Position numbers and translations under genes: made by a program. From Lytechinus pictus (lineage: Eukaryota), in the NCBI RefSeq assembly GCF_037042905.1, contig NC_087250.1, positions 26,724,001 through 26,788,000 of the forward strand: a DNA stretch of 64,000 nt, written 5' to 3'. Below are positions 6,027-62,601 of the stretch, piece after piece (position 1 is the first letter of the stretch; the number at the start of each line of letters is the position of its first letter). The notes beneath the pieces are model-generated. The model saw only the letters and a list, made by a program, of their open reading frames with translations, was not told the DNA's origin and ran no database searches.

Positions 6027-6049
<23 letters not shown>

Positions 6050-6055
<6 letters not shown>

Positions 6056-29225: not shown

Positions 29226-29670
29226 TTTTTGGGGGGGTTTTTTAGGATGTTTTATTGTATTCTCTCAAATCAAAATAAACATTCACATTCCATAAGCAAG
29301 TTGTACAAACTATTTGAAACTTGATTACAAATTATACAATAAATCCATAACAAATATAATTATACAAACTATACATCAAACTTCAAAGATACTAGAAATT
29401 AATACTAATGCGTTTCAGCAATTACAAAATGAAATATTAACAAGATGTATGAATGATAAGAGAGAAAAAAATGATAAAGTGTTGTTCTACCTCCCAACCC
29501 CCCATCCCCCCCCCCCCATCCCGTCACAAGGTTAGGAACACCCTCCCCTTTTTATGCCTATACTCTTCATGGAAGGGACTACAATTCTCCGTATTTATTT
29601 TATTGTTTTTGTATTTTTTTTGTGGTTTTGTCTCTCGTTGTATATATACCTTTGCCTCACTCTCCATATA

Positions 29671-31363: not shown

Positions 31364-32403
31364 AGGGGTGGTCCAGGCCAGGTTTAATTTATATCTACTA
31401 GATAGACAAAAACCTTCTCTTTCCTATACTATATTTTTTTTAAGAAATAAGAGGCACAGTTATTTTTTATTGAATTTTCAATTTTGCCAAAATCATATTC
31501 TGGCACGAGTCTGTACGATCCCAGAATGCAATGCGCAGCTTTTTCTGTGACGTAGCATCTCCACTTTGGCTTCGCTGGCTGCTGCTACGAGCGCGAGCGA
31601 GCTAGCTAGCTAGCTAGCTATCGCTCGCACGTATGCGTATAGATCATCAGCGCCGGCCGCATACGTACGGTATTAGCTACATGTAGTTTTCGACTTGCAT
31701 TGATTGCAGCCACCGTCGACCCTGTAATTCACAATTTGTTTGTTTCTCGCCGTTTATTTCATAATTTGAACAATTAATATGTCGGGTCCTGCGGGATATA
31801 CATTCCAACCAAGGTGGAATGCGGAAGAGTTGGAGAACCGTCGAAGAATAGAAGAAGAAGAGGTGGAGGAAGATCCGATCGTACCGCAGCCAGCGGCCGA
31901 TCGAGTGGGGAGAAATGACTGGTGTCGGTGCGGGAACTGCCCGGTGATGCCGACGGCCAGAGAGAGCATTTGGTCCTCGCAAACGACTCTACTCGCGTTA
32001 TATTTGTATGTTTTTATGTCAAACTTGTCAGTCCCAATATTGTGAAGCCACTGGGCACATCTCTCTCGATCTCGGATTGGATTTGGTATAGAAAACGCAC
32101 TTTTATGGTTATTTTCTCCCGGCCGAACCGAGCAGCCGTATGCCTGACACATAGGCATATTGCAGCTGTGAGACGTCGCGCGCTGGATTGTTGCGAAACC
32201 AAAGTGGAGATGGTACGTCACAGTCACGTGACCGATCTCGCTACATGTGCGCGAAATTTAATTCTTTTTGCCCCAAATAACCGTTACAAGAAATGCTCTT
32301 AAAAATCTCCAAAGTCGAGTAAGGAGATAATACTTTTTGAAATGGCTCCTGTAATTATTTACTACAGGCTAAATATTTTTTGGAGCTGGCCTGGACCACC
32401 CCT
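31364..32403. mobile_element. Internally deleted Kolobok transposon (THAP start and KolX/P2X7-C-like start, convergent)
   Basis: TTAA TSD; TIR aggggtggtccaggccag; minus strand MPMCQAYGC...FSIP...CAQW...VVCED (THAP); plus strand YTFQP...WCRCGNCPVMPTARESI. Confidence 0.85.
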
Positions 32404-35400: not shown

Positions 35401-36024
35401 AAGATCATTCCAACATTTGTTTTTTATAAAAACTTTAAGATTTTCACTACGTTATTTATAGGGAGAGTGAGGATTAGACATACCAACATATTTCCTAGTG
35501 TAACTGCAGTACATAATCCAATGATAAACTCTAATTTATTGCGCCATTGTTCAAAACCAAAATGAATGTCGATCAATTCGAATATTGCTATCCCTTCCAT
35601 GTAGAACATTATCTCTAAGAATCCTAAATAAGGTGCACGTAAATCCTGCAAGTAAAAAAAGAAGGGAAGAAATCCCATCTATACGACCCTCTCCAAAGCA
35701 GCACTCCCTCACAGCTCACCCTTCTTTACAGGTTGCTGTAGTATTTCCAATAATAATAATCTACCCCTAATTCTTGTCTTTTTTCTTTGTTTTAATCTTA
35801 TCAAATTTAAACGAAATAGCTGTAAATAAAATCAATAATGAAAAAAAGAGAAAAACTGACATTCAATCAGCATATACCGCATTAATAAGTTAAATCTTAA
35901 ACTTACACATACTAAGCAAGTATATATTTTTTCTGTTACTAAGAACCTATCCCCAACAAAACAATACAAGTAAAATAATAATAAATATGTTTGAAACACA
36001 GCCAAAAAAAAAAAAAAAAAAAAA

Positions 36025-37405
36025 ATTCAAACAGTCCTGAGATTCAACTTCCTCGACATCACTCTCAACTTGAACAACGACAAGTTCTACCCGTACCGGA
36101 AGCAAATGACCAACCCATGTACGTCCACAAACAATCCAACCATCAATCATCAAGAACCTACCAGCTTCCGTAAGCAGACAAGTATCAAATATCTCCTGTG
36201 ATGAAGAGACGTTCAAGAAAGCAGCTCCAATGTATGACAACGCCCTGAGATCCAGTGGATACGCAAATAGTCTGTCCTACACGAATGACCAACCAAGACG
36301 GAAAAGAAAAACAGGCAGCGTAATATTATCTGGTTCAACCCACCATTCAGCAAGAACGTGTCAACCAATATCGGCTGCATCTCCTTAAAGCTGGTCGACA
36401 AACACTTCCCAAAGAAATCCAAACTCAATCACATCTTCAATAGAAACACGCTCAAAGTGAGTTACAGCTGCATGCCGAACGTCGCCAGCGTCATCAAAAC
36501 TCACAACAAGCAATCCATGAAGGTAGACAATAAGTCAAACAGCAAAACGTGCAATTGCCGGAAAAAAGACCTCTGCCCTCTCCAAGGGAATTGCTTGGCT
36601 ACCAATGTCATCTACACGCGGAAGTAACAACCCCAGACAAGAGGATGACCTACATTGGCCTCACGGAGCCTCCCTTCAAGTCCAGGTACTATAACCACCT
36701 CCAATCCTTCCGACACGAACGGTACCAGAACAGCACGGAACTGTCGAAGTTCATCTAGGACCTGAAACGATGCGACACGCCGTATACCATCAAGTGGTCC
36801 ATCGCCAGCCATGCGCAAGCATACTCCAACGAGACAAAGAGATGTGACCTGTGCCTCACCGAAAAACTTCTCATTATCTGATTATGAACGCTGATATTAA
36901 AGCAGTCACTGCTGAACAAACGCCCAGAACTCGTTTCGAAATTCCGCCACCTAAACAAGTTCAAGTTATGCAATTCCAAAGACAATCTTCCGTAATCACC
37001 ATGCACGCACATCGTATAATGCAGTGACATCACCAATACTAGTGATGCAGCCTTTATAGGCATAATTTTCATTTTCACTTTCATTATTATCAATTATATG
37101 GCATCTCCTCTTATTATCGATTAATCGATCAACCTCCCATCGCAGAGTATCGATTATTTGAAAAACATTTGAAAAACATTCAAATTATAAGAACCTCAGC
37201 GCGCTATGGTTACCTAGCTTCCTGCGCCCACTATGTGCGTGTTTGGTGTAACGCGCTTTGCGCGATCGCGACGTGCATTGTTCAATGGTATTGAAAAGTT
37301 TTATCAGTTGCCTGAAGATCGCACCTCACGTAGGTTGCGTGAAACTCAGAGTTGCAATTAAATTTGATGAACCTCCAGTCAACATTGTGAACTTATGTTT
37401 ATTAT
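36025..37405 (+). mobile_element. Penelope-like element (second family), degraded RT-thumb/GIY-YIG plus pLTR
   Basis: NFLDITL, IIWFNPPF, KVSYSCM, YIGLT motifs across frameshifts; hammerhead at 37306-37359 (agttgc-CTGAAGA-stem-GAAA-ctc a gag-TT-gcaatt). Confidence 0.88.
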
Positions 37406-37990
37406 ATATATATTTATATATATATATATATATATGTATATTTATATATATATATATACAGTGCGTCCCACAAAAACGAAACCGAGATATATTGATGATT
37501 TATCATAACTTAATCACAAATAAAATAGACAAATGACCTACCATTGTAAAGCTAGAATCTCCTCTTTCATCAGAAATTACTTATATATTTTCTTATTCAC
37601 GCATGAGTAAGCAAAAACAATTTGAAGAGGGGATACCAAAAAGTCACTTTGCGGGCTGTATCTGGGTTTCAAAAAGAAAACCACATTTTTAAAAAGTTCA
37701 ATATCTCCCCCTTAATTTGATACCTCAATTACAGAAAATGGTCAAGAAATAACAAAGTTCTGGTTATTTGAAATAAGGCTTAAATTTCAATAATTTCATA
37801 AAATGAAGAGGTTTTTAATACAGGCTAGCGATCAAACTCACAGTACTCACTCGACACTCCGTTTTGTTGACGATCAGCCATGCATTCAGTCTTTTGTTAA
37901 CCGTGCGATAGCTTATGTGGAAAACCGGTGAAAACCGTTTATTTAATGAAATTTTGGAAATACAAGCATTGTTTCGAGGGAACATAACTT

Positions 37991-41831: not shown

Positions 41832-42307
41832 GTAGCTTTCCTTATAAAATGTGTTTAATGACAAAAGAGGTATTTTATTGTTTTACAAACTTCTCAAGTT
41901 TTCTCTTCTTCCACATTTTTTTCTTACATTTTTCCCCTGTGCCAAATCTATTTAGAAACTAAGCTGAACTACCCAATTAGTCAGATTGAAACTCTAGTAA
42001 GCATGTGACCCAGTAATGCGAGTTTGATAATTTCATTCATATTTCAAAAAAGAAGGCAAAATATAAATGACTAAATTGAAATAAAAATCTTAATTCCAAT
42101 ATATTTCACATAACATTGACCTGGTTTATAATAAAACTGTAAGATTTATGACCCTGGAACATACAATAATGCCTCTGACTGCCTCTTTCATCCAATACCA
42201 TTAACAATAATAATTCGGTAAATCATTGTTTTAGGAAGTATAAGGTATATCGTCCGGTGATACAAAAATTACAACATACAACATACAACGTAATTTGAAT
42301 TTGTTAC

Positions 42308-44469
42308 CTTGGAGAAATCAACTGTCTGACTGATTCATCCCTAGCATAGTGGATCGGTATATTGCCTGCTTTGTCTTCTGTGTCAGATCGTGCTCCATTT
42401 GTAAGAAGGACCTTTACAATGTCAATGTAGCTATTCTTAGCAGCAATGTGTAGAGCAGTCTGACCATCGTTATCACCCCTATTGACTTCAGCTCCGTGGC
42501 TGATCAGATATTTGATGACGTCAAGGCGGCCATTCTTAGCAGCAATGTGTAGAGCACTCTGACCATCGTTATCACTCAAATTGACTTTAGCTCCTAGGAT
42601 GATCAGAGAGCTGATGACGTCAAAAAGGTTATTCTTAGCAGCGATGTGTAGTGCAGTCTGACCATCAATACCACCCTTATTGACTTCGGCTCCTTGGCTG
42701 ATCAGATATTTGATGACGTCAAGATGGCCATTCTTAGCAGCGATGTGTAATGCGGTCTGACCATCATTACCACCCTTATTGATCTCGGCTCCTTGGCTGA
42801 TCAGATATTTGATGAAGTAAAGACGGCCATTCTTAGCAGCAATGTGTAGAGCAGTCTCACCATCGTTATCACCCCTATTGACATCAGCTCCTTGGCTGAT
42901 CAGATATTTGATGACGTCAAGATGGCCATTCTTAGCAGCAATGTGTAGAGCAGGCTGACCATCGTTACCACCCATATTGACATCAGCTCCTTGGCTGATC
43001 AGATATTTGATGACGTCAAGATGGCCATTCTTAGCAGCAATGTGTAGAGCAGGCTGACCATCGTTACCACCCATATTGACATCAGCTCCTTGGCTGATCA
43101 GATATTTGATGGCGTCAAGATAGCCATTCTTAGCAACAATGTGTAGAGCAGGCTGACCATCGTTACCACCCATATTGACATCAGCTCCTTGGCTGATCAG
43201 ATATTTGATGACGTCAAGATGGCCATTCTTAGCAGCGATGTGTAGTGCAGTCTGACCATCAATGTCACCCTTATTGAACCTAGCTCCTTGGCTGATCAGA
43301 TATTTGATGACGTCAAGATGGCCATTCTTAGCAGCGATGTGTACTGCGGTCTGACCATCAATACCACCCTTATTGACTTCGGCTCCTTGGCTGATCAGAT
43401 ATTTGATGACGTCAAGATGGCCATTCTTAGCAGCGATGTGTAGTGCAGTCTGACCATCAATACCACCCTTATTGACTTCGGCTCCTTGGCTGATCAGATA
43501 TTTGATGACGTCAAGATGGCCATTCTTAGCAGCGATGTGTAATGCGGTCTGACCATCATTACCACCCTTATTGATCTCGGCTCCTTGGCTGATCAGATAT
43601 TTGATGAAGTAAAGACGGCCATTCTTAGCAGCAATGTGTAGAGCAGTCTCACCATCGTTATCACCCCTATCGACATCAGCTCCTTGGCTGATCAGATATT
43701 TGATGACGTCAAGATAGCCATTCTTAGCAACAATGTGTAGAGCAGGCTGACCATCGTTACCACCCATATTGACATCAGCTCCTTGGCTGATCAGATATTT
43801 GATGACGTCAAGATGGCCATTCTTAGCAGCGATGTGTAGTGCAGTCTGACCATCAATATCACCCTTATTGAACCTAGCTCCTTGGCTGATCAGATATTTG
43901 ATGACGTCAAGATGGCCATTCTTAGCAGCGATGTGTACTGCGGTCTGACCATCATTACCACCCTTATTGATCTCGGCTCCTTGGCTGATCAGATATTTGA
44001 TGACGTCAAGATGGCCATTCTTAGCAGCAATGTGTAGAGCAGGCTGACCATCGTTACCACCCATATTGACATCAGCTCCTTGGCTGATCAGATATTTGAT
44101 GACGTCAAGATGGCCATTCTTAGCAGCGATGTGTAGTGCAGTCTGACCATCAATATCACCCTTATTGAACCTAGCTCCTTGGCTGATCAGATATTTGATG
44201 ACGTCAAGATGGCCATTCTTAGCAGCGATGTGTACTGCGGTCTGACCATCATTACCACCCTTATTGATCTCGGCTCCTTGTCTGATCAGATATTTGATGA
44301 CGTCAAGATGGCCATTCTTAGCAGCGACGTATAAAGCAGTGTATCCTTCCCTGGTCACTTTGTTCACATTTACTCCATGCCCAAGTATAGTTGTGATTTT
44401 CCCCAGAAAACCCAGCGATGCAGCTAAATGTAAATCTGTAGTATGTCCATCTCCATTCTCCATCTCCAC
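42308..44469 (-). CDS. Ankyrin-repeat protein exon (~21 repeats of 33 aa)
   Basis: Tandem 99-bp units encoding TALHIAAKNGHLDVIKYLISQGA; donor ccaag|gtaac at 42307; the upstream repeat at ~44470-44530 is out of frame, so the start is uncertain. Confidence 0.9.
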
Positions 44470-44654
44470 ATCAGCTCCGTGCTTTATACGAAATTTAATG
44501 AGATCCCCTTACCGCTTCGGTATGTAGAGCTAGGTAAAATAGCAATATCAAATCCGTGCGTGGTATACAAATGATGCATGCAGATGTGTTTATTATGCAT
44601 ACAGTTTCGATATCAATCCATTCCACGAAGCGAACAGGCCTTTGGTTGAATTGG

Positions 44655-45103
44655 GGGCGCATGTACCACTGATAGGATCCTGCAATTTCGGGAATCCCCT
44701 TTAGACCCGTACCTTAAAATGACGTAATGGTTGGAACGGTGCATATCTCAGCAATTTTTTTCATATGGGCATAGAGAGGGATTACTACTGGATCTGTTCA
44801 GTCCCATGGGAGAGCAGTAATTTGTCAATGCTAGATTTTATGGGACCTTAATTAGTTGCCCAAGAAACCCTGTGAGCACTGTGACTGCAACCAAGTTTGC
44901 ACGTAGTCTTGGTTTGAGCCGCTGTAGCGCGAAAAAATATTGAAAAACACCCTTTCATATCTTTAGCATTTGAAGGATATTGGATACACTACCAAATGAT
45001 AAAGGTGTGGATGATGTCATTTCTAAGACTTATTTTTGGCGATTTTTTCAAATCTCATTTTTAACACATGAGTCTATGGGGAAATAGTTAGTGGTGTGTG
45101 CCC
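44655..45103. repeat. 449-bp terminal unit (LTDR) with its own TIRs
   Basis: Begins gggcgcatgtaccactga, ends ttagtggtgtgtgccc, followed by tcaa; its first ~345 bp recur inverted at 56235-56597. Confidence 0.85.
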
Positions 45104-45418
45104 TCAACAGGTATTGTGCAGTAAACAGGGCTAGTTGGATGTAATTGCTGCTGGAAGGGAAACTGATTAAAAAGAAGGTGTGCAAACACTCTGAATAAAT
45201 GCCTGCCCTGTTGTTCTATCATGAAAACCCAATTGGCAGCTAACTAGGCACCATTTTCTTCAAAATACTCAAACAAATATAAAAATGCCACTTTTGCCAT
45301 TGACTTTGTATGTAATTTTGGCACTCTCCTACATTGGGGTCTTAAATGCAAGACTAGCACGCGCGTAGTAATCAGAAATACGTGTAGATCGTAGACCAAA
45401 ACATAAACAGGCCAGCAC

Positions 45419-48400
45419 CATAGAGATGTATACTAATAACGCTAGAGTGCGGAGTCGCCATAGGCGCGCGTACTTAACGTTTGTGATTGCGCGGAGAATG
45501 GTCGGCCATTGCTCGATAGGTCTCGATTTGCAAAAGTACCCGGATGTACGCATAGCTCGTGCGTTGTAATGCTGTGAAAAAGGGATGCCGTCTCCGGCCT
45601 TTTTCTTGAAGAAAAGAATCCAACCTAATTACAATCGAAAATATGAATGACAAATTGCATCTCAATAAACTATTAGAGTGATTACATGGGGATTCTGCTA
45701 TTAATTTGGCATTTTTAAACCTGATTTCTCGGGATGAAATTCTAAATAATTTGCATTTATACCTGTCCGTTTATAGGCCTTTAATAGATAACAATGTTGA
45801 TACTATCATATAAATAATTAGATAAAAATAAAAACATACAACGGACATTAATAGAAAGATTGACAATTGATTCAAAAGACAGTGAATTAGCCCATCCCCG
45901 GAGCCCATCTTCTCTGGATTTCCTTACCTTTAACTGCATCGTCCCCACGGCATATTTCCTTCAATCACGTCCTTTCATTCCATGTTCTCGTGACCAATTT
46001 GTTTATGTCGGATATAATTTTGTAATTTCTATATAGGCCTACAATATGTAACTTGCTTTAATTTGTATGAAATATAGGCCTATCATTTTTATATATTAAG
46101 TTGTACAATAATTTGTATAATGTTCTGATCTTTGATTACTATATATATAAAACATGCGCTATTATAATTTTAGTATAATTAAAGGGCATCTCATTGTTGT
46201 TCTTGGTGAGCCTCCCGTTACACCATCAATGTTAAAATTTGTGTTATTTGGTGAACGTCCTAATTTTGTTCTTATAGGAACATAATAAATTCCCCAAAAT
46301 CTGCAGGCCTATATGGCCCGAAAATGAAATATTGATAAAAAAATGTCGAGAATATAGCTTTTTATTGCAAACTTTTCACTTTTTAATTCCCTTCACTAAG
46401 TTCACTTTAAGTTAGATTTTTTTATTCGCTTTTTAGGGGGCCGTACACGTGTGTAATTAAAGTAACAAAGGTACCCTAGCAAATTCGCTTTAACATACTG
46501 ATCAAAATAAAATACAGGCTGCGCGACCGGATCCCTCCTTGAAATGAAAATGAACATTACACATAATAAATGATTTTGATTTTATGCACCCCATCACTTT
46601 CAAAATCATTCCGCGACGCCGTAGGTCTATAACATGATATAATAATTTTGTTCATCCATGGAAATCTTATTGTAAAAAAAAAAAGAATGATCCCCCGGAA
46701 ATAATCAAACTCAGGTCCATAGGCCAGCCAATGACATTAAAGGAAGAAAACTAGAAAATCAAATTCATATTATACTGTTAAAATGAAAAACAAAACTGAA
46801 TATTCAAAACGCGTGTTTATCTGTTTATAATTATGTATAGGCCGGTGCCTAAGAATATTTGCCATAAATTTCATTTATTCAAGCGACACAGACACAGTTA
46901 ATTAACACGATTTCAAGGCAGGTATCAAATTTGTAATATCTTACTCCAAGTATTTGTCAGTTTTGCAATATTATTGTTCCATAATTATGTTCATAGGCGG
47001 CGGAAGCGGGGGGGGGACAGGTCCCCCCTCCCCCTAAAATTGAGGTGGGGGACGGTCCCCCCTCCCTAAATTTGTTGTTGATAACCTTTTTTTTTTTTTT
47101 GCTTGTCAATTTTTTTTACCTGTGTCCATCACAATATTTCAGGTGGACTCCCCTAAATTTTGTGGCTTCCGCCGCCAGTGATTATGTTTGGTTTTAGTGC
47201 TCACAATATTTTGCAACCGTTTTCATATAATTATAATAAGTTTATTAAGTTTGCATTAATCTCTTTCATGATATTGTTATTGGTTTTATACACTCTTGCA
47301 GTAGTATTAATGTTCTTTATAGTATAATACAAATTATATATCCTAATCCCGCCCCTTTTCTTCTCCTCTCCTTCTCCCCCTTCTTCCTCTCCTTATTATT
47401 CTATCCTTGATTTGTTCACATAATATTGGTCCAATCATTATAGGATCAGAAACACCGGCGATAAACAGAAAATGTCAGTCAGTCTGCCGATCAGCATAGT
47501 ATTTCAGCCGGGGAGAATCAAGTCTAGACTTTCCAGAAAATCAAAGTGAAATTGTTTTATGTTGCGCATTGCGATTTGTTTACTTTCCGAAGTTTTGAAA
47601 TGTTTGCAAGGCAATTTAACACTGTAAACAGCATAAACTCCCCCCCCCCCACCCCCTTAGGCCTCCTGTACATTGCAAAATTGTACGACTGCAAGAGCGC
47701 ATTTGATATGCAAATTTTGCTGTCAACAAACTTTTCTACATTGATCGCAAGTACATGAAGTAAGAAAGTAAATATGATATGGGATGGCTGCCAGCAAAGG
47801 AAATCTAAATCATCAATTTTTAACTGAATCAATGCGTAAATCATTTTCAAATATCAATAAAAAGTCGGGTTTTTGTGATGTTGGTTAATTACATCAGCGT
47901 GTAAGACATGGGGAAAAGGGATCGAGTTAGGCCCTATTCTATGTATGATTTCTTTATGTAGATCTATATGGAAAATGAATTATAACAATGATCTAAAGTG
48001 AAGAAATAAATTATCAGCAATCAGTATAATAGTAATTAGGAAACTATACTTGAAAAAATACAATCGTGTTTTTTTTTCTCGATACCTTAGTGTCTCGGAT
48101 GCATCAGACACTGGCCTATGAATTTTCTTAGGTTAATTTCACCAAATCATATTAAGACATATTAAATTAGTTTATCAGGACCTAGGCCTAAATGTTATTT
48201 TTGATATTCATCTCTTCCAAATTATTAGAAAATAGAAGTCATATTAATGTATCGAAATTTTACCAAAGCAAAAGCAATTGGGACTGTAAATCGTTTGCCT
48301 TTATTATAGTTGTATAGGCCTATATTATGCGCTAGAGATAGGCCTATATAGGATTTTTGACCTCAGTTTTGCTAGATTTTTTTTGTTATTTGAACTTTAA

Positions 48401-48604
48401 TCCAGTGCAATATTTAAAATTTTGCTTTCGCGCTCAAATGTCATCAATTTGTCCTGTTCTGTGCTCATCCGTGTACATGCCCCATAGGTACTGTACGCGC
48501 ATGGCAGGCTGCGAAGACCTATCGAGCAATGGCGGCCGGTCTCCGCGTAATCACAGCGATTTGACGAAGTACGCCCTCTAGCGTTATTAGTATACATCTC
48601 TATG
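45419..48604. mobile_element. Non-autonomous P-element-like insertion in INT1
   Basis: 29-bp TIR catagagatgtatactaataacgctagag; 8-bp TSD gccagcac (45411-45418, 48605-48612); empty site in INT2 at ~52574. Confidence 0.9.
46992..47180. mobile_element. Small hAT-like MITE
   Basis: TIR cataggcggcggaagc / gcttccgccgccagtg; 8-bp TSD attatgtt. Confidence 0.8.
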
Positions 48605-48837
48605 GCCAGCACCGACACCGGCACCTAGTTTATTGTTAGTAATTCTCTTTCAACATCTTCCTAAGATAGGATTTTCAGTCAAGTTAAAAGGAATAACATG
48701 GCAAGGTAAAATTTGAAGTTTTTATATGGAATTTTATAGCAATGAATGTCTGGTTACTGAAATTCATTACAGAGGGCAAAACTTACTATTATTAATTAAT
48801 GTTATTTGGCTGTATAGGCCTAGTACCGTACACAATC

Positions 48838-49244
48838 ATGGCTGATCCACATCAGGAATGGTGTTCCAAATATTCAAAACTATTGGACAGTAAGACAGAA
48901 AAGAGGGGAAATGAGCCGTCGGCATGCTGGCCATTTAAAGGGCGAACAAAAAATGGGTATGGCTTAGTGGATGTGAACATCCCAGCCCCAGGCAGCCGTA
49001 AGACCACTAGGCATGCCCATCATCGGCTTGTGCTGATGACAAGGGTGGCGATGACTTGGGAGCTAGGTTTCGTCTGAGCTCCATGAGTCCATGCCTCTCA
49101 CCTTTGCGGTAATCGCATCTGTGTGAGGCCAAGGCCAAGCCATTTAGTGTTTGAGAGCCATATGAAGAGAAAAAACAGCGTCAAATTTGCCATAATTTGA
49201 AAACTTGCCAATCCCACGAGCCCCCTTGCATCATATCAGCCTGA
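48838..49244 (+). pseudogene. His-Me finger nuclease, disrupted copy
   Basis: Same sequence as 52797-53180 with several 2-8-bp insertions. Confidence 0.9.
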
Positions 49245-49371
49245 CTTAAGTATCACTGTGAGTGTGTGACTAACTGAGACTACAGTGAGTTTATTAACTA
49301 ATTTTAGGGAAATTAGGCATAGAGGTCTGGGCCTAGACTACATAATTATTAAACAAATAAAGTGATCCAAA

Positions 49372-51400
49372 GTCAAGATCTAGTTTCCCCTTTATCGCAG
49401 ATCTTTCTGTCATAGCTAGGAGTGATCACTTTGAATAGATATGTGAGTGTTTTCTAATTGTCCCTTCACATAAGAGTGGAAATTGCTGTCATCTTTCCAC
49501 CTTTTTACCTTTTGATACAGTTTGTATTTATACTCCCTATGTGTAGCTTTGGACTTAATTGCTGTCATCTTTTTACTTCTCTTTCTCCAGTAGTCCCTTC
49601 TCTGCTGCAGATGCAAGAGCTTGTGTCGAAGTCTTGATCCCCCTTTCACTGGAACCTGGGCAGCTAAGGCCTTGTCAAGGATCGATGCGGGGCCCCCGTT
49701 GGTAAGTTGTATTGCAGAATGCTCTCTGTTTGCTTGATTTCTGACATAGGTAGTGGAATGCTTTGGGTAGGTTACTCTGAAAGCAGAATTCATTGACTCT
49801 GCCTTTTGTGTTGACAAATTAAACCGTGTTCTCCTGAGGGTTTGAGTGGACAGTCTTTGACGTATTGTTCCCAAAATTTGTTGCTGATCTCTCATATTAA
49901 GCGTTATCCGCTGTCTAAACTCCAGAGGTAAAAAGGGAAATTTGAACCCTCCGTTACATGCTAGGCTCTGGTTCCAGCACAGTTCATGATTTCCAGTATA
50001 ACACAAAATCATTGCCTCCCCACATCTTTGCAACTGTTCTTCGTATACTAAAATGTCCCCTGATTGATTATGTGCTGAATTTAATTCAGCTTGAACCCTG
50101 TAAGCAATGTCGCCTGCCATTGCTCTCTGCTGCTTGTCTCTCAGTCTTGAAGTTTTACCTGGGAAAGAATTTTTGCTCAGAGTAAGTCTTTCCAATTTTT
50201 TACACGGAGACCGCTTCAGGTGATTGACACAAAGGTATGATGTTGGATCTACACCAGCTGCGCTCTTCATGACTTCTTGGACTCCCCTGTGAAAGTGTCC
50301 ATCACTATCGCTAACAACACCTTTGACAAGTAGCTGCGTTTTATCTCCAGTAAGTAATTTTTGTGCACATTTTTGTCCACCAAGCATTTCGTCCCCTATG
50401 TTATCACTCATCTTTATTGTGGCTGTACACTTAGGATGGTTAGGGCAGGCAGGTTCTTTTCCTTGACCAACTAATCTCTGGCCTACTCTACAAAGTCACA
50501 ACATCACGAGCTTGAGTCGCTGGTGCAAATGGTGTTCTCCCCTTTGCATGGCTGAGAGGTATGTTATATTGTCTGTCAATTTCTATGTTAATAGGTGTAT
50601 TTCTGTCCATCCCTCTGTACTCCAAAATGTCTTTCACCTTCCTGCGCTTTTCTGCCATATCCAATTCATTGGCAGCGGCCAAGATATCACCACATTTGTT
50701 AGCTGTCTTTTGGAAACCGCTAAGTGATCCAGTTGGAATACTCATTGCTGTTAGAATCCTGCTTGCAGCAGCATTTGCAATACTGCTTTGGTATAGCCCC
50801 ACCTGTAGAGCCATGTTTGGTACAGCAGTTTTTCTCCCTGATTCTGTTTTATCAATCTCTCTGAAAAACTTTAGAGCGGTTGATTCAAATTTACAAGTCC
50901 TGCACCTGAATACGACAGTAACTGCAATTCCTCTTATCTTTTCTTTTTCTTCAGGAATCATCCAGTCCATGTTTGAACACCCAGGGCTACAATGTGAATG
51001 CTGTTGGCAAGCTTCATTAATTGATGGCCATGGTGAGCTTCTCTACATCAACAATCCGATGACCGACAGCTGAACCATCAGTGGATGTCAACATTTTTGC
51101 CAGTGGTACAGAGTCTTCTGATGTCTTTGGCCTGAGAATCATGGTTGTAGAAGAGCGACTGACAGGTTGATCATGCTTGTGAAGAAAGTTGCCACGCTCA
51201 TCACGGGACATTGTGCGGTCCAAGTCCTCTCTTGTTAGACGTACATATTTGGTCTTGAGAATACTGTTGGAATTACCAGCTTCCCACTTCAGCCCCTTAT
51301 TCCATGCTCTATGGCCAGGTACAAAAAGGTTCTTTCGCTTGTCAGATAGTTTCTTGGGGCCCATTGTGATTGCTTTTGGTTTGGCAGGGAAAGTTTTCAC
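49372..51400 (-). pseudogene. DDE transposase, disrupted copy
   Basis: Near-identical to 53301-55373 but with a 53-bp deletion at ~50497 and 4-bp insertions at ~51017 and ~49415. Confidence 0.9.
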
Positions 51401-52796
51401 TTGTATTTATACACTTTTCTACTGTGCATCCTCCCCCCCCCCCCCCTCCTCCCCACAATAAGGAGAAGAAAAAAAAATCACAATTATGTCATGATTTCCT
51501 CCCTATTTTACAGGGAAATCATTTTCTTTTTAACCCAGAAGGGCAGCAGTGACGTATTTTGTAGCCAGAATTCCATGAGTACTTCCATGTCCTTCACCTA
51601 GTTTACATTACACAATTGTTATGGTGACAGATTCATATTCCACACTGGCCAGCAATAAATGTCCCTTTAGTATACTACTGAATCAATACTCTGGATCATG
51701 ATAATAATCACAATGTATTCAGCTATCATTCTCTGTCATTTGGCTCTTCTCAATAACCCCCTCCCGGCCCCTCTCTCTCTCTCTCCCCCCCCCTCTCTCC
51801 CTTTCCTCCTTCCATTTTTCATCCCTTTCTGTCAACATGTCACTCATTTTCTCTGCCTTCTGTAAAACTATGAATGTTATTACACACAAGGCACTTAGAT
51901 TTGCTTTTTCTTTTGTTTTTATTGTTTTTTCTCTTGAATTGTGATATTAATTTCAAGTGATAATGACTTAGAAAAATGAATCAAGTACTATTAAAACACA
52001 TTTACAACATTTCAAAGGTGATGATTATCATTAAATTTCAATTCATGAACATGGATTGAGCTTAAACATTACAAAATTTTCTTATAGGTGCATTGTTTCA
52101 ACATTGTGTATTCTGTCTGTATTATAACCCTGGAGAGACAATGTTTATTCCCTGATCAGAAGAGAACGGGGTCTCCAAAAAAAAAAAAAAATTAACATTA
52201 TGCATATGATACCCTAAGGTTGTGCCAAAAAAAAAAATTCCCAAGTTCAGTGAGAATCGCACCCTCTCAACAGGTATTGTGCAGTAAACAGGGCTAGTTG
52301 GATGTAATTGCTGCTGGAAGGGAAACTGATTAAAAAGAAGGTGTGCAAACACTCTGAATAAATGCCTGCCCTGTTGTTCTATCATGAAAACCCAATTGGC
52401 AGCTAACTAGGCACCATTTTCTTCAAAATACTCAAACAAATATAAAAATGCCACTTTTGCCATTGACTTTGTATGTAATTTTGGCACTCTCCTACATTGG
52501 GGTCTTAAATGCAAGACTAGCACGTGCGTAGTAATCAGAAATATGTGTAGATCGTAGACCAAAACATAAACAGGCCAGCACCGACACCGGCACCTAGTTT
52601 ATTGTTAGTAATTCTCTTTCAACATCTTCCTAAGATAGGATTTTGAGTCAAGTTAAAAGGAATAACATGGCAAGGTAAAATTTGAAGTTTTTATATGGAA
52701 TTTTATAGCAATGAATGTCTGGTTACTGAAATTCATTACAGAGGGCAAAACTTACTATTATTAATTAATGTTATTTGGCTGTAGGCCTACACAATC

Positions 52797-53180
52797 ATGG
52801 CTGATCCACATGAGGAATGGTGTTCCAAATATTCAAAACTATTGGACAGTAAGACAGAAAAGAGGGGAAATGAGCCGTCGGCATGCTGGCCATTTAAAGG
52901 GCGAACAAAAAATGGGTATGGCTTAGTGGATGTGAACATCCCAGCCCCAGGCAGCCGTAAGACCACTAGGCATGCCCATCGGCTTGTGCTGATGACAAGG
53001 GTGGCGATGACTTGGGAGGTTTCGTCTGAGCTCCATGCCTCTCACCTTTGCGGTAATCGCATCTGTGTGAGGCCAAGCCATTTAGTGTTTGAGAGCCATG
53101 AAGAGAACAAACAGCGTCAAATTTGCCATAATTTGAAAACTTGCCAATCCCACGAGCCCCCTTGCATCATATCAGCCTGA
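52797..53180 (+). CDS. His-Cys-box / His-Me finger homing-endonuclease-like protein (127 aa)
   Basis: CWPFKG..GYG...HAHRL...ASHLCGNRICVRPSHLVFESHEENKQRQIC...C..HEPPC motif pattern; aataaa at ~53284. Confidence 0.9.
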   Translation: MADPHEEWCSKYSKLLDSKTEKRGNEPSACWPFKGRTKNGYGLVDVNIPAPGSRKTTRHAHRLVLMTRVAMTWEVSSELHASHLCGNRICVRPSHLVFESHEENKQRQICHNLKTCQSHEPPCIISA

Positions 53181-53300
53181 CTTAAGTATCACTGTGACTA
53201 ACTGAGACTACAGTGAGTTTATTAACTAATTTTAGGGAAATTAGGCATAGAGGTCTGCGCCTAGACTACATAATTATTAAACAAATAAAGTGATCCAAAG

Positions 53301-55337
53301 TCAAGATCTAGTTTCCCCTTTATCGCAGATCTTTCTGTCATAGGAGTGATCACTTAGAATAGATATGTGAGTGTTTTCTAATTGTCCCTTCACATAAGAG
53401 TGGAAATTGCTGTCATCTTTCCACCTTTTTACCTTTTGATACAGTTTGTATTTATACTCCCTATGTGTAGCTTTGGACTTAATTGCTGTCATCTTTTTAC
53501 TTCTCTTTCTCCAGTAGTCCCTTCTCTGCTGCAGATGCAAGAGCTTGTATCGAAGTCTTGATCCCCCTTTCACTGGAACCTGGGCAGCTAAGGCCTTGTC
53601 AAGGATCGATGCGGGGCCCCCGTTGGTAAGTTGTATTGCAGAATGCTCTCTGTTTGCTTGATTTCTGACATAGGTAGTGGAATGCTTTGGGTAGGTTACT
53701 CTGAAAGCAGAATTCATTGACTCTGCCTTTTGTGTTGACAAATTAAACCGTGTTCTCCTGAGGGTTTGAGTGGACAGTCTTTGACGTATTGTTCCCAAAA
53801 TTTGTTGCTGATCTCTCATATTAAGCGTTATCCGCTGTCTAAACTCCAGAGGTAAAAAGGGAAATTTGAACCCTCCGTTACATGCTAGGCTCTGGTTCCA
53901 GCACAGTTCATGATTTCCAGTATAACACAAAATCATTGCCTCCCCACATCTTTGCAACTGTTCTTCGTATACTAAAATGTCCCCTGATTGATTATGTGCT
54001 GAATTTAATTCAGCTTGAACCCTGTAAGCAATGTCGCCTGCCATTGCTCTCTGCTGCTTGTCTCTCAGTCTTGAAGTTTTACCTGGGAAAGTATTTTTGC
54101 TCAGAGTAAGTCTTTCCAATTTTTTACACGGAGACCGCTTCAGGTGATTGACACAAAGGTATGATGTTGGATCTACACCAGCTGCGCTCTTCATGACTTC
54201 TTGGACTCCCCTGTGAAAGTGTCCATCACTATCGCTAACAACACCTTTGACAAGTAGCTGCGTTTCATCTCCAGTAAGTAATTTTTGTGCACATTTTTGT
54301 CCACCAAGCATTTCGTCCCCTATGTTATCACTCATCTTTATTGTGGCTGTACACTTAGGATGGTTAGGGCAGGCAGGTTCTTTTCCTTGACCAACTAATC
54401 TCTGGCCTACTCTACAAAGTTTGTTTGTTGAATTGTAAGTTACAATGTACTTCTCCGGGGTCACATTTTCTGTCACAACATCACGAGCTTGAGTCGCTGG
54501 TGCAAATGGTGTTCTCCCCTTTGCATGGCTGAGAGGTATGTTATATTGTCTGTCAATTTCTATGTTAATAGGTGTATTTCTGTCCATCCCTCTGTACTCC
54601 AAAATGTCTTTCACCTTCCTGCGCTTTTCTGCCATATCCAATTCATTGGCAGCGGCCAAGATATCACCACATTTGTTAGCTGTCTTTTGGAAACCGCTAA
54701 GTGATCCAGTTGGAATACTCATTGCTGTTAGAATCCTGCTTGCAGCAGCATTTGCAATACTGCTTTGGTATAGCCCCACCTGTAGAGCCATGTTTGGTAC
54801 AGCAGTTTTTCTCCCTGATTCTGTTTTATCAATCTCTCTGAAAAACTTTAGAGCGGTTGATTCAAATTTACAAGTCCTGCACCTGAATACGACAGTAACT
54901 GCAATTCCTCTTATCTTTTCTTTTTCTTCAGGAATCATCCAGTCCATGTTTGAACACCCAGGGCTACAATGTGAATGCTGTTGGCAAGCTTCATTGATGG
55001 CCATGGTGAGCTTCTCTACATCAACAATCCGAAGACCGACAGCTGGACCATCAGTGGATGTCAACATTTTTGCCAGTGGTACAGAGTCTTCTGATGTCTT
55101 TGGCCTGAGAATCATGGTTGTAGAAGAGCGACTGACAGGTTGATCATGCTTGTGAAGAAAGTTGCCACGCTCATCACGGGACATTGTGCGGTCCAAGTCC
55201 TCTCTTGTTAGACGTACATATTTGGTCTTGAGAATACTGTTGGAATTACCAGCTTCCCACTTCAGCCCCTTATTCCATGCTCTATGGCCAGGTACAAAAA
55301 GGTTCTTTCGCTTGTCAGATAGTTTCTTGGGGCCCAT
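53301..55337 (-). CDS. Kolobok/Mutator-like DDE transposase, intact (first ATG 55337; frame open to 55373)
   Basis: Candidate triad IEID / VSDSD / QKAES; CxxH (CVNH) after the second Asp; Cys/His clusters CRTC and CPNHPKC. Confidence 0.85.
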   Translation of the reverse strand: MGPKKLSDKRKNLFVPGHRAWNKGLKWEAGNSNSILKTKYVRLTREDLDRTMSRDERGNFLHKHDQPVSRSSTTMILRPKTSEDSVPLAKMLTSTDGPAVGLRIVDVEKLTMAINEACQQHSHCSPGCSNMDWMIPEEKEKIRGIAVTVVFRCRTCKFESTALKFFREIDKTESGRKTAVPNMALQVGLYQSSIANAAASRILTAMSIPTGSLSGFQKTANKCGDILAAANELDMAEKRRKVKDILEYRGMDRNTPINIEIDRQYNIPLSHAKGRTPFAPATQARDVVTENVTPEKYIVTYNSTNKLCRVGQRLVGQGKEPACPNHPKCTATIKMSDNIGDEMLGGQKCAQKLLTGDETQLLVKGVVSDSDGHFHRGVQEVMKSAAGVDPTSYLCVNHLKRSPCKKLERLTLSKNTFPGKTSRLRDKQQRAMAGDIAYRVQAELNSAHNQSGDILVYEEQLQRCGEAMILCYTGNHELCWNQSLACNGGFKFPFLPLEFRQRITLNMRDQQQILGTIRQRLSTQTLRRTRFNLSTQKAESMNSAFRVTYPKHSTTYVRNQANREHSAIQLTNGGPASILDKALAAQVPVKGGSRLRYKLLHLQQRRDYWRKRSKKMTAIKSKATHREYKYKLYQKVKRWKDDSNFHSYVKGQLENTHISILSDHSYDRKICDKGETRS

Positions 55338-56957
55338 TGTGACTGCTTTTGGTTTGGCAGGGAAAGTTTTCACTTGTATTTATACACTTTTCTACTGTGC
55401 ATCCTCCCCCCCCCCTCCCCACAATAAGGAGAAGAAAAAAAAATCACAATTATGTCATGATTTCCTCCCTATTTTACAGGGAAATCATTTTCTTTTTAAC
55501 CCAGAAGGGCAGCAGTGACGTATTTTGTAGCCAGAATTCCATGAGTACTTCCATGTCCTTCACCTAGTTTACATTACACAATTGTTATGGTGACAGATTC
55601 ATATTCCACACTGGCCAGCAATAAATGTCCCTTTAGTATACTACTGAATCAATACTCTGGATCATGATAATAATCACAATGTATTCAGCTATCATTCTCT
55701 GTCATTTGGCTCTTCTCAATAACCCCCTCCCGGCCCCTCTCTCTCTCTCCCCCCCCCCCCCTCTCTCCGGGCCCTTTCCTCCTTCCATTTTCCATCCCTT
55801 TCTGTCAACATGTCACTCATTTTCTCTGCCTTCTGTAAAACTATGAATGTTATTACACACAAGGCACTTAGATTTGCTTTTTCTTTTGTTTTTATTGTTT
55901 TTTCTCTTGAATTGTGATATTAATTTCAAGTGATAATGACTTAGAAAAATGAATCAAGTACTATTAAAACACATTTACAACATTTCAAAGGTGATGATTA
56001 TCATTAAATTTCAATTCATGAACATGGATTGAGCTTAAACATTACAAAATTATCTTATAGGTGCATTGTTTCAACATTGTGTATTCTGTCTGTATTATAA
56101 CCCTGGAGAGACAATGTTTATTCCCTGATCAGAAGAGAACGGGGTCTCCAAAAAAAAAAAAAAAATTAACATTATGCATATGATACCCTAAGGTTGTGCC
56201 AAAAAATAAAATTCCCAAGTTCAGTGAGAATCGCATCATTTGGTAGTGTATCCAATATCCTTCAAATGCTAAAGATATGAAAGGGTGTTTTTCAATATTT
56301 TTTCGCGCTACAGGGGCTCAAACCAAGACTACGTGCAAACTTGGTTGCAGTCACAGTGCTCACAGGGTTTCTTGGGCAACTAATTAAGGTCCCATAAAAT
56401 CTAGCATTGACAAATTACTGCTCTCCCATGGGACTGAACAGATCCAGTAGTAATCCCTCTCTATGCCCACATGAAAAAAATTGCTGAGATATGCACCGTT
56501 GATTTTATATTAATATTTTTCCAACCATTACGTCATTTTAGGTACGGGTCTAAAGGGGATTCCCGAAATTGCCGGATCCTATTAGTGGTGTGCGCCCTTC
56601 AGAGGGTGCGATTCTCACTGAACTTGGGAATTTTTTTTTTTGGCACAACCTTAGGGTATCATATGCATAATGTTAATTTTTTTTTTTTTGGAGACCCCGT
56701 TCTCTTCTGATCAGGGAATAAACATTGTCTCTCCAGGGTTATAATACAGACAGAATACACAATGTTGAAACAATGCACCTATAAGATAATTTTGTAATGT
56801 TTAAGCTCAATCCATGTTCATGAATTGAAATTTAATGATAATCATCACCTTTGAAATGTTGTAAATGTGTTTTAATAGTACTTGATTCATTTTTCTAAGT
56901 CATTATCACTTGAAATTAATATCACAATTCAAGAGAAAAAACAATAAAAACAAAAGA

Positions 56958-58875
56958 TAATTCTAGAGAAATTTAATATTGACATTTCAGAGGACACTTT
57001 AGATATAGGGGCCTACACCCAAACAAATTTTGCAGCACATGCTATTGCCATCTCACAATCAAGAAACCATTACATTGGACACCAAAAAACTGGGACACAC
57101 ATAGGAGAACATCACACTGTCATACATGTACACATTTTAAAGAAACACAAACACCAGGCAGACCAAAGAAAAGAAAAGCTGGTGGCCGCCCCCCTGCAAC
57201 AACAACACCCCAGTCTCACTTTTCTCAATTAGGAGTATCACTATCAGGAACAACAGACAATCAAAAATACAACATCAATCAAGACACATTTCACATTGAT
57301 AATTCACTACAATTCCTTTTGTGTTGTGTTTGTAGGTCTGTTGTGTCATGTCCTGTCGAGTCACCTTGTAACCACCTGTTTTGTCTTGACTGTATATCGT
57401 CTCTCTTTGTCAAAGTGTCTGTTAGCTGTCCTCTTTGTAACATTCAATTTCATTATTCTCAAACACACACACCAGCCGCATACATCATCACATTACTACA
57501 AAATCTTCATGTTCAGTGTTCACATTGTAAAACATCCCTTCACTACACCCAAACATCAGGCCATTCGTGTCATACTCGTGTAAACTGTGACCATACATAC
57601 GCAAAATGTACGCAAATGGACCTCAACACCCAACAACGCCGGCAGATAGCCTCTGAATACCTCAAATGTCAGATGGCCAAGTCACATGATGGTATGTCAG
57701 CCAGCATAGGTTTAGCAGGTCGTGGAAAGGTAAATGCAAAAGTCTTATCTCCTAGCTACCGGTAGTTTAAAGTAACAATCATCATCACATATTTCAAACT
57801 TGCAGAAGATTTTGTGGAAGACGAACAAGTTAGGGTCTCAAAATATATCATTCTCTTTATCATTGTCAGTCAAATTTATTTCAGAAGTTTCAACATTTAA
57901 AAAAGTTATTTCAATAGTCCCAGTAGATTTGAATTATGCAAGGTTGATCAGGTTGAATTCACATATAAAGGCAAATGATTGGGTATATATTACCCAAGTA
58001 ATATTAGTAAATATGTATTTTATTATATACATATTATATATATAATTTCAGTTTCATACATTTAAGTTTTCATACTGTAAAGAAATTAGCCATTAATGTA
58101 TTTTAGTTCACAGTATAAGAAACAAATAAAATAATCATAATGGTGCATATATCATGTAAGTATAACAACAAAACTTTGCCCCCCCCCCACCAAACAAAAC
58201 TAAAAATAACAAAAGAAAACATGGATTTCTAGAAAGTCATAGATATCATTTAATTGCTATAATTTAACTATTTTCTAGATACACAACCCTGTATGTTGAA
58301 TCCTCATTAGATATACATGTATTCTAAAAGATTTTAATAATTTTACACCATTATCTTGAATAATATAATGTTATTTTGAAAATGAAACTTCAGCGGTAAC
58401 TTGCCATCTATATATTCTTACAGCCTATGAGAGCTTTCAAAATTCCAAGCAGCATCGTACCAAGTACAACCTGTTCATCATCCACCCTCCGTAAAAGAAC
58501 GTCAATAATACATCATGTAAGGCAAGAGGTTTCTGGTGGGAGAGAGGCAGCCGATACTCAACAGCAACATGAAGTTTCCCAATCTGCAAGCATCACAGGG
58601 ATCTTGGGCCCACAACCCCTCCATATTCCATCAAGAGACATTATGGAGCTGAAAAGCTTCTTCAGCTTGAGTTGGAGAAAGCTACGACGTTTGAAGAGGT
58701 GACTTGAACAATCTTTGTTATGGACATTCATGTAATTACACCCCGGAAGAGGGTACTCAGATTTGGTTTGGACGGGGATCTGCAGCTGAAGAGTTCATAC
58801 CCATACTTATTAAGTTAATGGGTCATTTAGTCAGAAAGGAATAATAATAATAACAATAATAATAATAATAATAAC

Positions 58876-58922
<47 letters not shown>

Positions 58923-61900
58923 TAATAATAACCTGCTCAACATTTGCAGCACATGATACGTCTCTATGGACTTTTAAAGTACTTTGGATGTTCTTACCCC
59001 GGCTTTAGCCCCTGGAGCCTTTATACAGATCTCAGTGCATTCAAGGAATGAATCCTACCAGGTACCCACTTACAACACCTGGGTCGAGTGTGGCAAATGT
59101 AGATTAATATCTTGCTAAAGGACATTGGTACTGTGGTGGGATTTGAACCCCAGATCTCGTGGTTCACATTCCCTTGACTTATCCACAGCACCTTTACAGG
59201 GTACCAATTAAAAGGTATTTCATTTTTTTGTAAAGACCACTTTTGCATCTCGAATGATATTCTCAAACGACGAGAATATATACGGGCGAGAATATCATTC
59301 TTAACAATAAAGTTACCCATGTTTTGGAGGTTTTCTGGCACAAAACATTACCCCATGCTTTGGGATTTCTTTTAAAAAAGTGACCCATTAGAGTGGCACA
59401 TATCCCCATATACCTTATAAGATGAGTATTCCCCCCCCCCCCCCCACCCCACCAGGAATTACACCTCATACTAGATTAAGTCATTAATACAATAAAAATA
59501 CAATACCTAAATATATTTCTTAACAGCTGGCTAAAAGAACGGAGAATTTCTACAGGAAATGAGAGGGAAGTGAGGAGACTCCAAGATGATGTGGTAAAAA
59601 ACAACATTACCGGGGAACTGTTGCCTCTCCAACAAGGCTCAAGTGAGACTGGCATGGAAATTAAGGAGACCCCGGTAGTAACAGTAAGCAGCCTCAGTGC
59701 CCTTGTCAAGGACTTACTAGAGGAATATGATCGGTGAGTTCTACCTGTGATAATGTAAACAAAACCATTAAAGCAAATCATTAACATAACAAAAGAAGAA
59801 AGATATTTTAAATATCATTAAAAATGATTACTGAATGCACCAATTACAAAAAAAAATGATAGGGATGAATTCACAAGAGAGTTTTAAACCTCCTTTGTGA
59901 ATTTGGGCCATAGTGTTTCTGATATTGATATCTATTCCTTATCCTCAGAAGCATTATGATTTTATTCTGGTAATATAATTTTATTAATTAAACCCATTTA
60001 AATCAAATTAAATAGCCCTTTGAATAATGCAATAATATCCTATTTCTACATATCTACAGACTTGGAGAGCTCACCTGGCATGACGACCACATCCCCGAAG
60101 GAGAAATTTGGTTGAAAGGGGGAGGAACTTTCAAGCTAATGGTGCAATTGGCCAATGTGAAGCGACCCAATAGCCTCCACAACACCCGGGTGATCATGTT
60201 GTTCCCTGGATCTGACTCCACTTACAACCTCGATGTCTCTCTGGAGACCATTAGATGCCAAATTGCTGATTTGGAGTCAATGTCATGGCGGTGTGTTTTC
60301 TTCTTCTGTTGAATAAAATATTAATATCCATAAAAATCAAAAAGATTACCAGAACCTATAAAATTTCAATGAGTAAGATTTCTAATGTGAATGTAGTTAT
60401 TTGGTATGTGAATTTTATTGTGTCTATCTCATATTTTGTCTTTATACAGAGGGAAAACCATGAAAGTCTTTGCCTTCGGCGACTATGAATATCTGACCCG
60501 CATGTATGGACTCACTGGCCCCAATGGTAAGCCTTACTTTCATAAACATTATATATACATATATATTATTTTGATTGAATAGAGGTAATTAAAAAAAAAT
60601 AATAATTTCTCTTGACTTGTATCCCCATTTTTTTTTTTCTTCACCAGGCCGTCATTGCTGTCTCTACTGTGAGATGACCAAGAAGGAAATAGCTGACCCA
60701 CCAATGGCTGTCCCCTGTCAGCGAAGCCTGCAGACCCTCAAGGAATCCCTGAACCACTTCAAAACCTGTGGCATCCCAAAGGAATCTAATAACGTCATCA
60801 GATCCCCATTCTTTGACATTCCAATAAATAGGGTAAGATATTTAAGAAAAAAATGATTTCAATAGCCAAATGCTTAATCAGTAGCCAGAATATAACTCTC
60901 ACCAGGGGTGGGGTGGGTGTGTAATCGGATCTGTATCTTACCACAGACCTTTATGCTTATCGGGTTATAGCTACTTTAAACCCCTCAGGAAGACAAACAT
61001 TCAGAACATTCAAAAGTGAAATCTTAATTTCATCTGCAATGATGACAATGAAAATTGTTATTAATACCTCTGATATTATAAGCCCTTTTCTCTTATTTAT
61101 CAGGTCTGTCCTCCTGGGCTCCATATCTCCCTCGGGGTCTTCTTGAAGCACTTCAACTCGCTCTGCCAAGCATGTCACACTCTGGACCTGGAGATTGGCC
61201 AGTCCTTGGCAAAAAGTCCTACAGACCAACTGGAAGCAAAAGAGGCCTTCAAACAGCAGCTGAAGAAGCTGAGTCTCCAGTCAAGACTGAAGCTTGCTGA
61301 GGAAGAACTCCACGACCTCATGGACCAGCACATGATGGTTGGACTTCTTTACCCTGAAGCTGAACCGCCCACCCTCATCCTGGAAATGGCTGAAGAGAAG
61401 AAGAGAGAGAAAGTTACACTGGTTAGTATCTTGGATGTCACACTGGCAGTATTGTAAATACGAGTTGCATACGTTTTAATCTTAAATCATGTATAGATGT
61501 ACCAAATGCATCTTTAACTAAAATTAATATAAGATTTAACATATAAAATCTCTTTTTTATTTGTAGGAGAAGGAAATAGGCAAAATACCAGAAATGACAG
61601 TTCACTCTGGACCAACTAATGTTGGTCTAGAAGAAGCACTACAGCAGTTGAGAGTGAGCAGACAGGCGTACCATGGTCGTTCATTTGTAGGGAACCATGT
61701 ACATAAATGTTTACAGGTGAGTAGAGTATATCATGAAAAGTAAGAACATTCCTGAAATATACTACTATATTTACACAAATTATAGTAATTCACATTGTCT
61801 TTCTTTTGAATAATACAAGAAAATATAAATTCTAGATGTTTGCTTCTTGCCTAATGTCCACTTTATTCTAATAGTAAATGTCACTATCCTTTTACTTTGA

Positions 61901-62601
61901 ACCTATCTTCGTGTACCTTGTTCCAACAGCCTGAGAACACTGATCTGATCACTGCTGCTATATCAAAGAAGGTACAGTCACTCTGCCCCAACGACCGGGA
62001 CCTCATCCAGAAGGCAGAAGAGATAGCCAGCAAGTATAATACTTTGCTAAAGCTGTTCGGGGCATGCCACCGGGGTATAAACACGGGTACTTTCCTGGAC
62101 GACTCAGTCATCGACAAGCTGGGTAAGAGTCTAAGAGATCATGATCATAAAGGTCAGCTGCAAAAAAAAAATGAAATGCAAGTAATTTTCATATCAAATA
62201 AATAAAGAGTGACAGAGCAAGAAAATATCAATTGACACTGAAGAAGCAAAAATATTACTAGAAAATAACATTTATAGATCTCTATTTTTGTTTTTTCTAT
62301 CGTTTATTTACTGACAGACAAAGACATCAAAGAGTATATGTTGTTCTACCGTCAGAACTTCCCCACAGAGAGCGTGACCCCCAAACAGCATCTATTGCAG
62401 TATCATGTCATCCCCTGGTTCAGAGACTGGAGAGCAAGCCTTGGGATGATGGGTGAACAAGGGGGAGAGTCGGTCCACTGCCAACTCAACAACATTTCAA
62501 GAGATTTGAGGGGCTACAACGATGACCTCAAACTCAATATACAATGTGTAAAAAATCAGTGGATATTAAGTAGCCCCTCAAATTACAATAAGTTCAGTTA
62601 G
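56958..62601 (+). pseudogene. Chapaev/N-RAG-TP-like transposase with RAG1-like motifs, 10 exons, 5'-truncated
   Basis: Exons ~56958-57729, 58424-58698, 59527-59733, 60060-60290, 60450-60526, 60648-60832, 61104-61421, 61567-61716, 61930-62122, 62318-62601, all GT-AG and phase-consistent; motifs HPNKFCSTC, C3HC4 RING, FGDYEYL, CCLYC, PPGLHISLG, FVGNH, TPKQH...HV, EQGGESVH. Confidence 0.85.
58742..59456. mobile_element. MITE in intron 2 of the RAG1-like gene, containing an (AAT)n tract and a SINE-like fragment
   Basis: 8-bp TSD aattacac (58734-58741, 59457-59464); ends cccgg..gggtactc / gagtattcccc..ccagg. Confidence 0.65.

Follow-up and report, generated by a model that had tools for sequence, protein, structure and literature searches.

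Self-comparison of the window, the whole 64-kb stretch of DNA analysed here, which is free of any N, brought out an array in which two tandem copies of a transposon's internal region (INT), termed INT1 and INT2, follow a left long terminal direct repeat (LTDR) and give way on the right to an inverted piece carrying part of an LTDR and a third INT end (Table 1). Only one LTDR in the window is whole, the second being inverted and truncated. From an INT of 3970 nt, simple arithmetic gives a monomer of the form LTDR-INT-LTDR a length of about 4910 nt. The left LTDR ends in GTGTGCCC at 45103 and is followed by TCAA and then by the INT start at 45108, just as a preliminary description of this DNA had reported. 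That description also gave a right boundary of the form INT end-TGAA-LTDR start (GGGCGC) on the minus strand; the order is there, but it belongs to the inverted piece and not to a terminal repeat in place. Both of the TTAA-like inner tetranucleotides that it listed, TCAA and TGAA, are real. The order of INT end, TGAA and LTDR in the inverted piece implies, on sequence grounds, a direct LTDR arrangement in the parent element.

Table 1. Positions, strands and bases of assignment of the array's features in the 64-kb window
Feature	Positions	Strand	Basis
Left LTDR, 449 nt, GG..CC ends; 3' LTDR in the element's own orientation	44655-45103	-	Window comparison
TCAA, the inner tetranucleotide that separates the LTDR from the INT start	45104-45107	+	Window sequence
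INT1, damaged: carries the 3.2-kb insert, lacks 53 nt at 50495 and has frameshifts in both transposase and nuclease	45108-52266	-	Self-comparison, reading frames
Non-coding DNA transposon, 3186 nt, 29-nt perfect TIR from CATAGAG	45419-48604	.	Window comparison
Nine of the ten 2-8 nt insertions of INT1, mostly adjacent-base duplications with or without filler	48813-49416	.	INT1/INT2 alignment, X13 contig
INT-INT junction, single TCAA; one LTDR and TGAA absent	52267-52270	+	Boundary comparison
INT2, with open reading frames, without its last 5 nt	52271-56235	-	Self-comparison, reading frames
Predicted His-Me finger nuclease, 127 aa, I-PpoI-like	52797-53180	+	PF05551, E 5e-15
Predicted DDE transposase, about 678 aa from MGPKK	53301-55337	-	PF20700, E 1.9e-42
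Inverted partial LTDR, 363 nt; meets INT2 via 1 common base	56235-56597	+	Self-comparison
TGAA, the inner tetranucleotide that separates the INT end from the LTDR; only in the inverted piece	56598-56601	-	Window sequence
Inverted third INT-end copy, about 355 nt, stops at 56960	56602-56960	+	Self-comparison

A KolobokP element with a rearranged right end

KolobokP transposons, as characterized in the text of PMC9587614, consist of two direct LTDRs flanking an INT, with a target-site duplication of 3-5 nt. Their LTDRs are about 450 or about 660 nt long and bear their own TIRs of 11-18 nt with RR..YY ends; the DDE transposase has, besides a C/DxxH motif, a CCHC finger after the first D and a further finger ahead of the E, and an I-PpoI-like His-Me nuclease lies downstream on the opposite strand (PMC9587614). 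The left LTDR at our locus is 449 nt long, and a 16-nt TIR with GG..CC termini agrees at 15 of 16 letters between the end of the inverted copy and the inner end of the left copy. The predicted transposase contains D260, a finger formed by C306, C321, H324 and C327, D367/D369, a CxxH at 393-396, a second finger formed by C469, H474, C477 and C484, and E537. Nearly all of these residues are invariant in 13 aligned sequences (the query and 12 of its 20 homologs), and D260, D367/D369, H396 and E537 are so throughout; the 20 homologs, at 29-72% identity, came from 7999 scored candidates. The nuclease frame stands tail to tail with that of the transposase, plus against minus strand, the latter ending at 53301, and all five of its PDB matches are I-PpoI chains (best E 0.0037). 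Since LTDR, TIR, transposase and nuclease all match the features by which PMC9587614 defines the group, the element is, judged by its sequence, a KolobokP DNA transposon.

The listed KolobokP-1_LyPi, also from Lytechinus pictus, has LTDRs of 466/467 nt, a 16-nt TIR and a total length of 4984 nt, against an LTDR of 449 nt (466 without the private indels of the left copy), a 16-nt TIR and about 4910 nt in the present element. The LTDR starts of the element, of KolobokP-1_LyPi and of other echinoderm KolobokP have a short motif in common when compared by eye; the TIRs are unlike those of KolobokP-1_LyPi and the echinoderm families. An exact search of the four PMC9587614 supplements with four motifs of the element, three from its DNA and one peptide, gave no match, the text being line-wrapped so that misses are possible. 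Because these four motifs found no match and the TIRs differ from those of KolobokP-1_LyPi, the element apparently represents a KolobokP family absent from the lists of PMC9587614. Among metagenome contigs a 27-nt INT-end pattern had no match, and the transposase gave one weak match of 26 residues (L001) among 45 candidate stretches.

Alignment of the left LTDR with the inverted copy shows a 20-nt gap. At the outer end of the left LTDR (44653-44681), three substitutions and a 2-nt insertion within 30 nt set it apart from the inverted copy, and two further G precede this end. Speculatively, a damaged outer TIR may have immobilised the left LTDR, which would be why it was retained. The left flank holds a 734-codon ankyrin frame on the minus strand (42304-44508) with about 20 tandem 99-nt repeats, which begins some 150 nt away from the LTDR and does not reach it.

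At the other end INT2 halts 5 nt before the INT end and runs, through one common base, into inverted mid-LTDR sequence. The inverted piece as a whole (56235-56960) ends where it joins a reading frame that contains a RING finger; RAG1 is the best PDB match of this frame (E 1.4e-7), and its Atlas matches, at 0.95, are to RAG1 N-terminal clusters. The frame is part of a decayed, apparently intron-split gene at 56948-62600 with a RAG1-like N-terminal zinc region and the RING finger. Judging from its motifs, this neighbour is probably a decayed Chapaev-type transposase; in Chapaev transposases a Chapa domain is followed by a RING (PMC4411706). The left and right flanks of the array do not fit each other as halves of one target, and sequence has therefore been lost or rearranged: the array is not intact, its right end is rearranged and its original right terminus is lost. 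We infer a break at the INT2-LTDR boundary followed by faulty repair.

Repeats are also found elsewhere in the window. Two arms of about 940 nt (6047-6988 and 7547-8492) form a nearly perfect inverted repeat with a 558-nt spacer and a strong mirrored strand skew, which may be either a young fold-back element or an assembly fold-back; a 397-aa frame over this repeat has no Pfam match above cut-off. Fragments of non-LTR retrotransposons with reverse transcriptase and endonuclease occur at 466-1545 and 28950-37408, the latter lying between 278-nt inverted arms (28950-29227 and 37131-37408), and 21266-26400 contains several interleaved direct and inverted copies, 60-96% identical, of a unit of a few hundred nt.

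The junction and the two INT copies

INT1 closes with GAATCGCACCCTC at 52254-52266, directly before the junction TCAA, and INT2 opens with CAGGTATTG directly after it, from 52271. The string noted in the preliminary description, an INT end, one tetranucleotide and an INT start, is thus present in the window, although its position had been put slightly off, at 52261-52275, the TCAA itself occupying 52267-52270. The sequence is that of the INT-end boundary as far as 52267 and that of the INT-start boundary back to 52266; the two sides overlap by only 2 nt (CT), and the piece missing between them is one LTDR plus 4 nt. The chance of such a placement is about 2.5e-7 (3 equivalent registers over about 12 million point pairs in a 4.9-kb unit), or 1e-5 with a tolerance of 5 nt at each end. 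The junction in the window is genuine and precise, and the unlike inner tetranucleotides make it visible that TGAA departed with the LTDR and TCAA remained. We also considered a deletion through the CCCTC common to the INT end and the LTDR end (C CCTC/CCCTCAA) and rejected it, the join that it predicts being 2 nt too short.

The two INTs diverge by 0.46% (18 substitutions over 3920 aligned letters) and are distinguished by 14 indels in the main block, in addition to the 3.2-kb insert; these differences argue against an assembly duplicate. The insert in INT1, a putative P-like transposon, is bounded by an 8-nt target duplication (45411-45418 and 48605-48612). It has inner 19-nt inverted repeats and harbours a nested, very high-copy element of 190 nt with 17-nt TIRs at about 46991-47181. 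This insert, the 53-nt deletion and ten micro-insertions of 2-8 nt are confined to INT1, with none in INT2. Nine of the micro-insertions fall within about 600 nt right beside the insert, a clustering reached in 3 of 200000 random placements, the window having been picked post hoc, and the tenth is at 51016. Duplicates of adjacent bases make up 34 of the 49 inserted letters (control mean 6.5; none of 20000 random controls reaches 34). In several cases the filler is the reverse complement of bases beside it. Transposon excision scars show such reverse-complement fillers, and the micro-insertions accordingly look footprint-like in sequence; either local hopping or an open-chromatin hotspot may underlie the cluster.

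A 1391-nt contig (X13 record 9) that leads from the LTDR end into the INT is free of the 3186-nt insert and shows 45 gap letters where the nine small insertions of INT1 sum to 45, and since it does not have them they are INT1's own gains. It differs from INT1 by 2 letters over stretches with 8 INT1/INT2 substitutions and therefore agrees with INT1 at no fewer than 6 of these 8 sites. That a contig only two substitutions away has none of the nine insertions means that here scars accrued faster than point changes. All 6 substitutions between the two transposase frames change the residue, as is expected under free decay after a local duplication. The homologs indicate the altered copy for three of the six residues. 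At residue 100 the H of INT1 recurs in 7 of the 12 homologs, against L in INT2; at residue 356 INT2 shares its E with the closest homolog, against K in INT1; at residue 96 INT2 is probably again the odd copy. Hence both copies carry derived changes and have altered since their separation, in keeping with a local duplication. That INT2 is a pristine recent arrival is not supported, because it has derived residues and X13 record 9 sides with INT1. At site 48676 the letters of both INT1 and INT2 are found in contigs of other samples, which could also fit two different donor copies.

Origin of the INT-INT join

We consider excision of a central LTDR from a tandem dimer by the transposase to be the best reading of the junction, and a probable one. 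A KolobokP monomer (LTDR-INT-LTDR, about 4.9 kb) would have given rise to a tandem dimer with a common central LTDR, and this LTDR, with its own TIRs, would have been a mini-transposon for the element's transposase. It would have been removed, presumably by that enzyme, along with 4 nt of one side (TGAA on the plus strand), whereupon the two INT ends would have been rejoined via the leftover TCAA, and INT1 and INT2 would then have decayed independently. Where INT2 ends on the right, a second break near another INT-LTDR boundary may have been badly repaired and so have fused the inverted fragment to the neighbouring gene. In support of excision, the missing piece is exactly an LTDR plus 4 nt, with 2 nt in common. 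The preliminary description had likewise proposed the precise loss of a central LTDR, which is also the published reading (PMC9587614), but the LTDR-INT-LTDR-INT-LTDR parent that it drew is a reconstruction: the evidence is one junction, and the dimer with its central LTDR was not itself observed. Its further view of the locus as a snapshot of the mechanism went too far, in that LTDR excision and re-entry of an INT circle yield identical letters, and the INT-INT join itself cannot separate the two.

In the latter scheme the transposase, acting at the two inner LTDR ends, would release an INT-only circle carrying INT end-TCAA-INT start, which then recombines into the INT of a monomer. Besides predicting the same sequence, it can draw on circular intermediates being left open in PMC9587614, on the lopsided damage, with all micro-insertions, the 3.2-kb insert and the 53-nt deletion in INT1, and on the two letters of site 48676 in other samples. 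Yet the circle proposed in PMC9587614 comprises LTDR and INT and not INT alone, INT2 is no pristine newcomer, as the contig and its derived residues attest, and lopsided damage could equally arise after a duplication; we regard this route as improbable. We assign a similarly low probability to repair by the host, in which a break within the central LTDR, for instance by the His-Me nuclease, is resected and closed on the flanks of the missing LTDR, CTGAA and CTCAA, so that the LTDR and 4 nt are deleted. These flanks are alike at 4 of 5 letters, 2 of them at the true join, and the identical TATA or TTAA flanks of the three published families compared (PMC9587614) would permit the same route. Against it, a 449-nt LTDR offers many other short matches and still the join sits at the two TIR ends, and the one-sided LTDR losses beside unrelated flanks in PMC9587614 need no common tetranucleotide.

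An assembly artefact, whether a joining of two alleles or loci or a chimeric read, appears very improbable. Part of the stretch is contained in 14 of 19 sequencing runs (best share 0.51), and contigs from four of them were compared with 44520-52380, where the matches are dominated by the high-copy repeat near 47000; among the matches listed, no piece or joint bridges 52267-52270 and no INT end is joined to an LTDR. The former, and the fold-back at the right end, a shape that chimeric reads can produce, would be in keeping with an artefact. However, a misjoin by overlap would pass through the LTDR rather than omit it, only 2 nt are in common in a window without N, the odds that a random chimera would hit these points are about 1e-5 at most, and INT1 and INT2 are not identical. 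The inverted INT end, moreover, differs from each forward copy by one inner substitution and in poly-A length, which is weak evidence against a read copy. The preliminary description had also raised the case of a junction internal to the consensus INT, which is contradicted by two normal boundaries in the window. In such a case the junction would be a normal inner part of a longer INT, and nothing was found in its favour: an LTDR end precedes the INT start both at 45104-45108 and in X13 record 9, in the inverted piece the INT end is followed by TGAA and the LTDR, and a 3970-nt INT gives a 4910-nt monomer, near the 4842-4984 nt of the listed echinoderm KolobokP families. We hold this to be exceedingly improbable.

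Relation to known excision systems

LTDR-(INT)n-LTDR insertions that retain a single tetranucleotide were attributed to LTDR excision by Kojima and Bao (2022, PMC9587614), whose Table 2 gives six such insertions in three families. In the abutted INTs of KolobokP multimers 3-4 nt are lost at one tip (PMC9587614); at the present junction 4 nt are lost and one tetranucleotide is kept. In KolobokP-1_MeMe, KolobokP-7_MeMe and KolobokP-4_MyCo two INTs likewise abut at one tetranucleotide with the LTDR gone, but in the junctions of the PMC9587614 supplement their INT tips are identical (TATA or TTAA), as against TGAA and TCAA here, and our array, unlike those insertions, is incomplete with a rearranged right end. 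Other published junctions, including the clam multimers given as counts, may have unlike tips; the wording 'either tip' in PMC9587614 suggests that its authors saw such junctions. The junction type was thus already described in 2022, and the family is apparently uncatalogued within a known lineage; what is new here is that the unlike inner tetranucleotides reveal which side was lost.

According to PMC9587614 an excised LTDR takes with it 1-5 flanking bp from one side only, a process likened there to IS3/IS256 circles. The lost TGAA would be compatible with a transposase event of this published type, in which a 4-nt spacer is taken from one side, and it would also be compatible with a piggyBac-like 4-nt stagger in which one mismatch was resolved. 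The seamless excision of piggyBac proceeds through complementary 4-nt overhangs and leaves one tetranucleotide, as here, and non-TTAA flanks are excised too (PMC7351741). However, piggyBac belongs to a different transposase superfamily, and the losses in KolobokP are variable (1-5 bp) and one-sided (PMC9587614). It appears unlikely that the KolobokP transposase, whose C/DxxH signature is of the hAT/P/MuDR type, nevertheless makes staggered 4-nt cuts in the flanks as piggyBac does, the TGAA and TCAA sticky ends annealing in spite of one mismatch and being resolved to one. If it did, families with unlike tetranucleotides would record the strand choice at every INT-INT junction, and the cleavage pattern could be read from genomes.

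The significance of the locus is modest, a single junction settling nothing by itself. The mode of LTDR excision and the role of the nuclease in KolobokP are described as still untested in PMC9587614, and a 2026 review has the nuclease model awaiting confirmation (PMC13565253). An excision assay would have a convenient substrate in this family, whose inner tetranucleotides differ and which includes a copy with both frames open.
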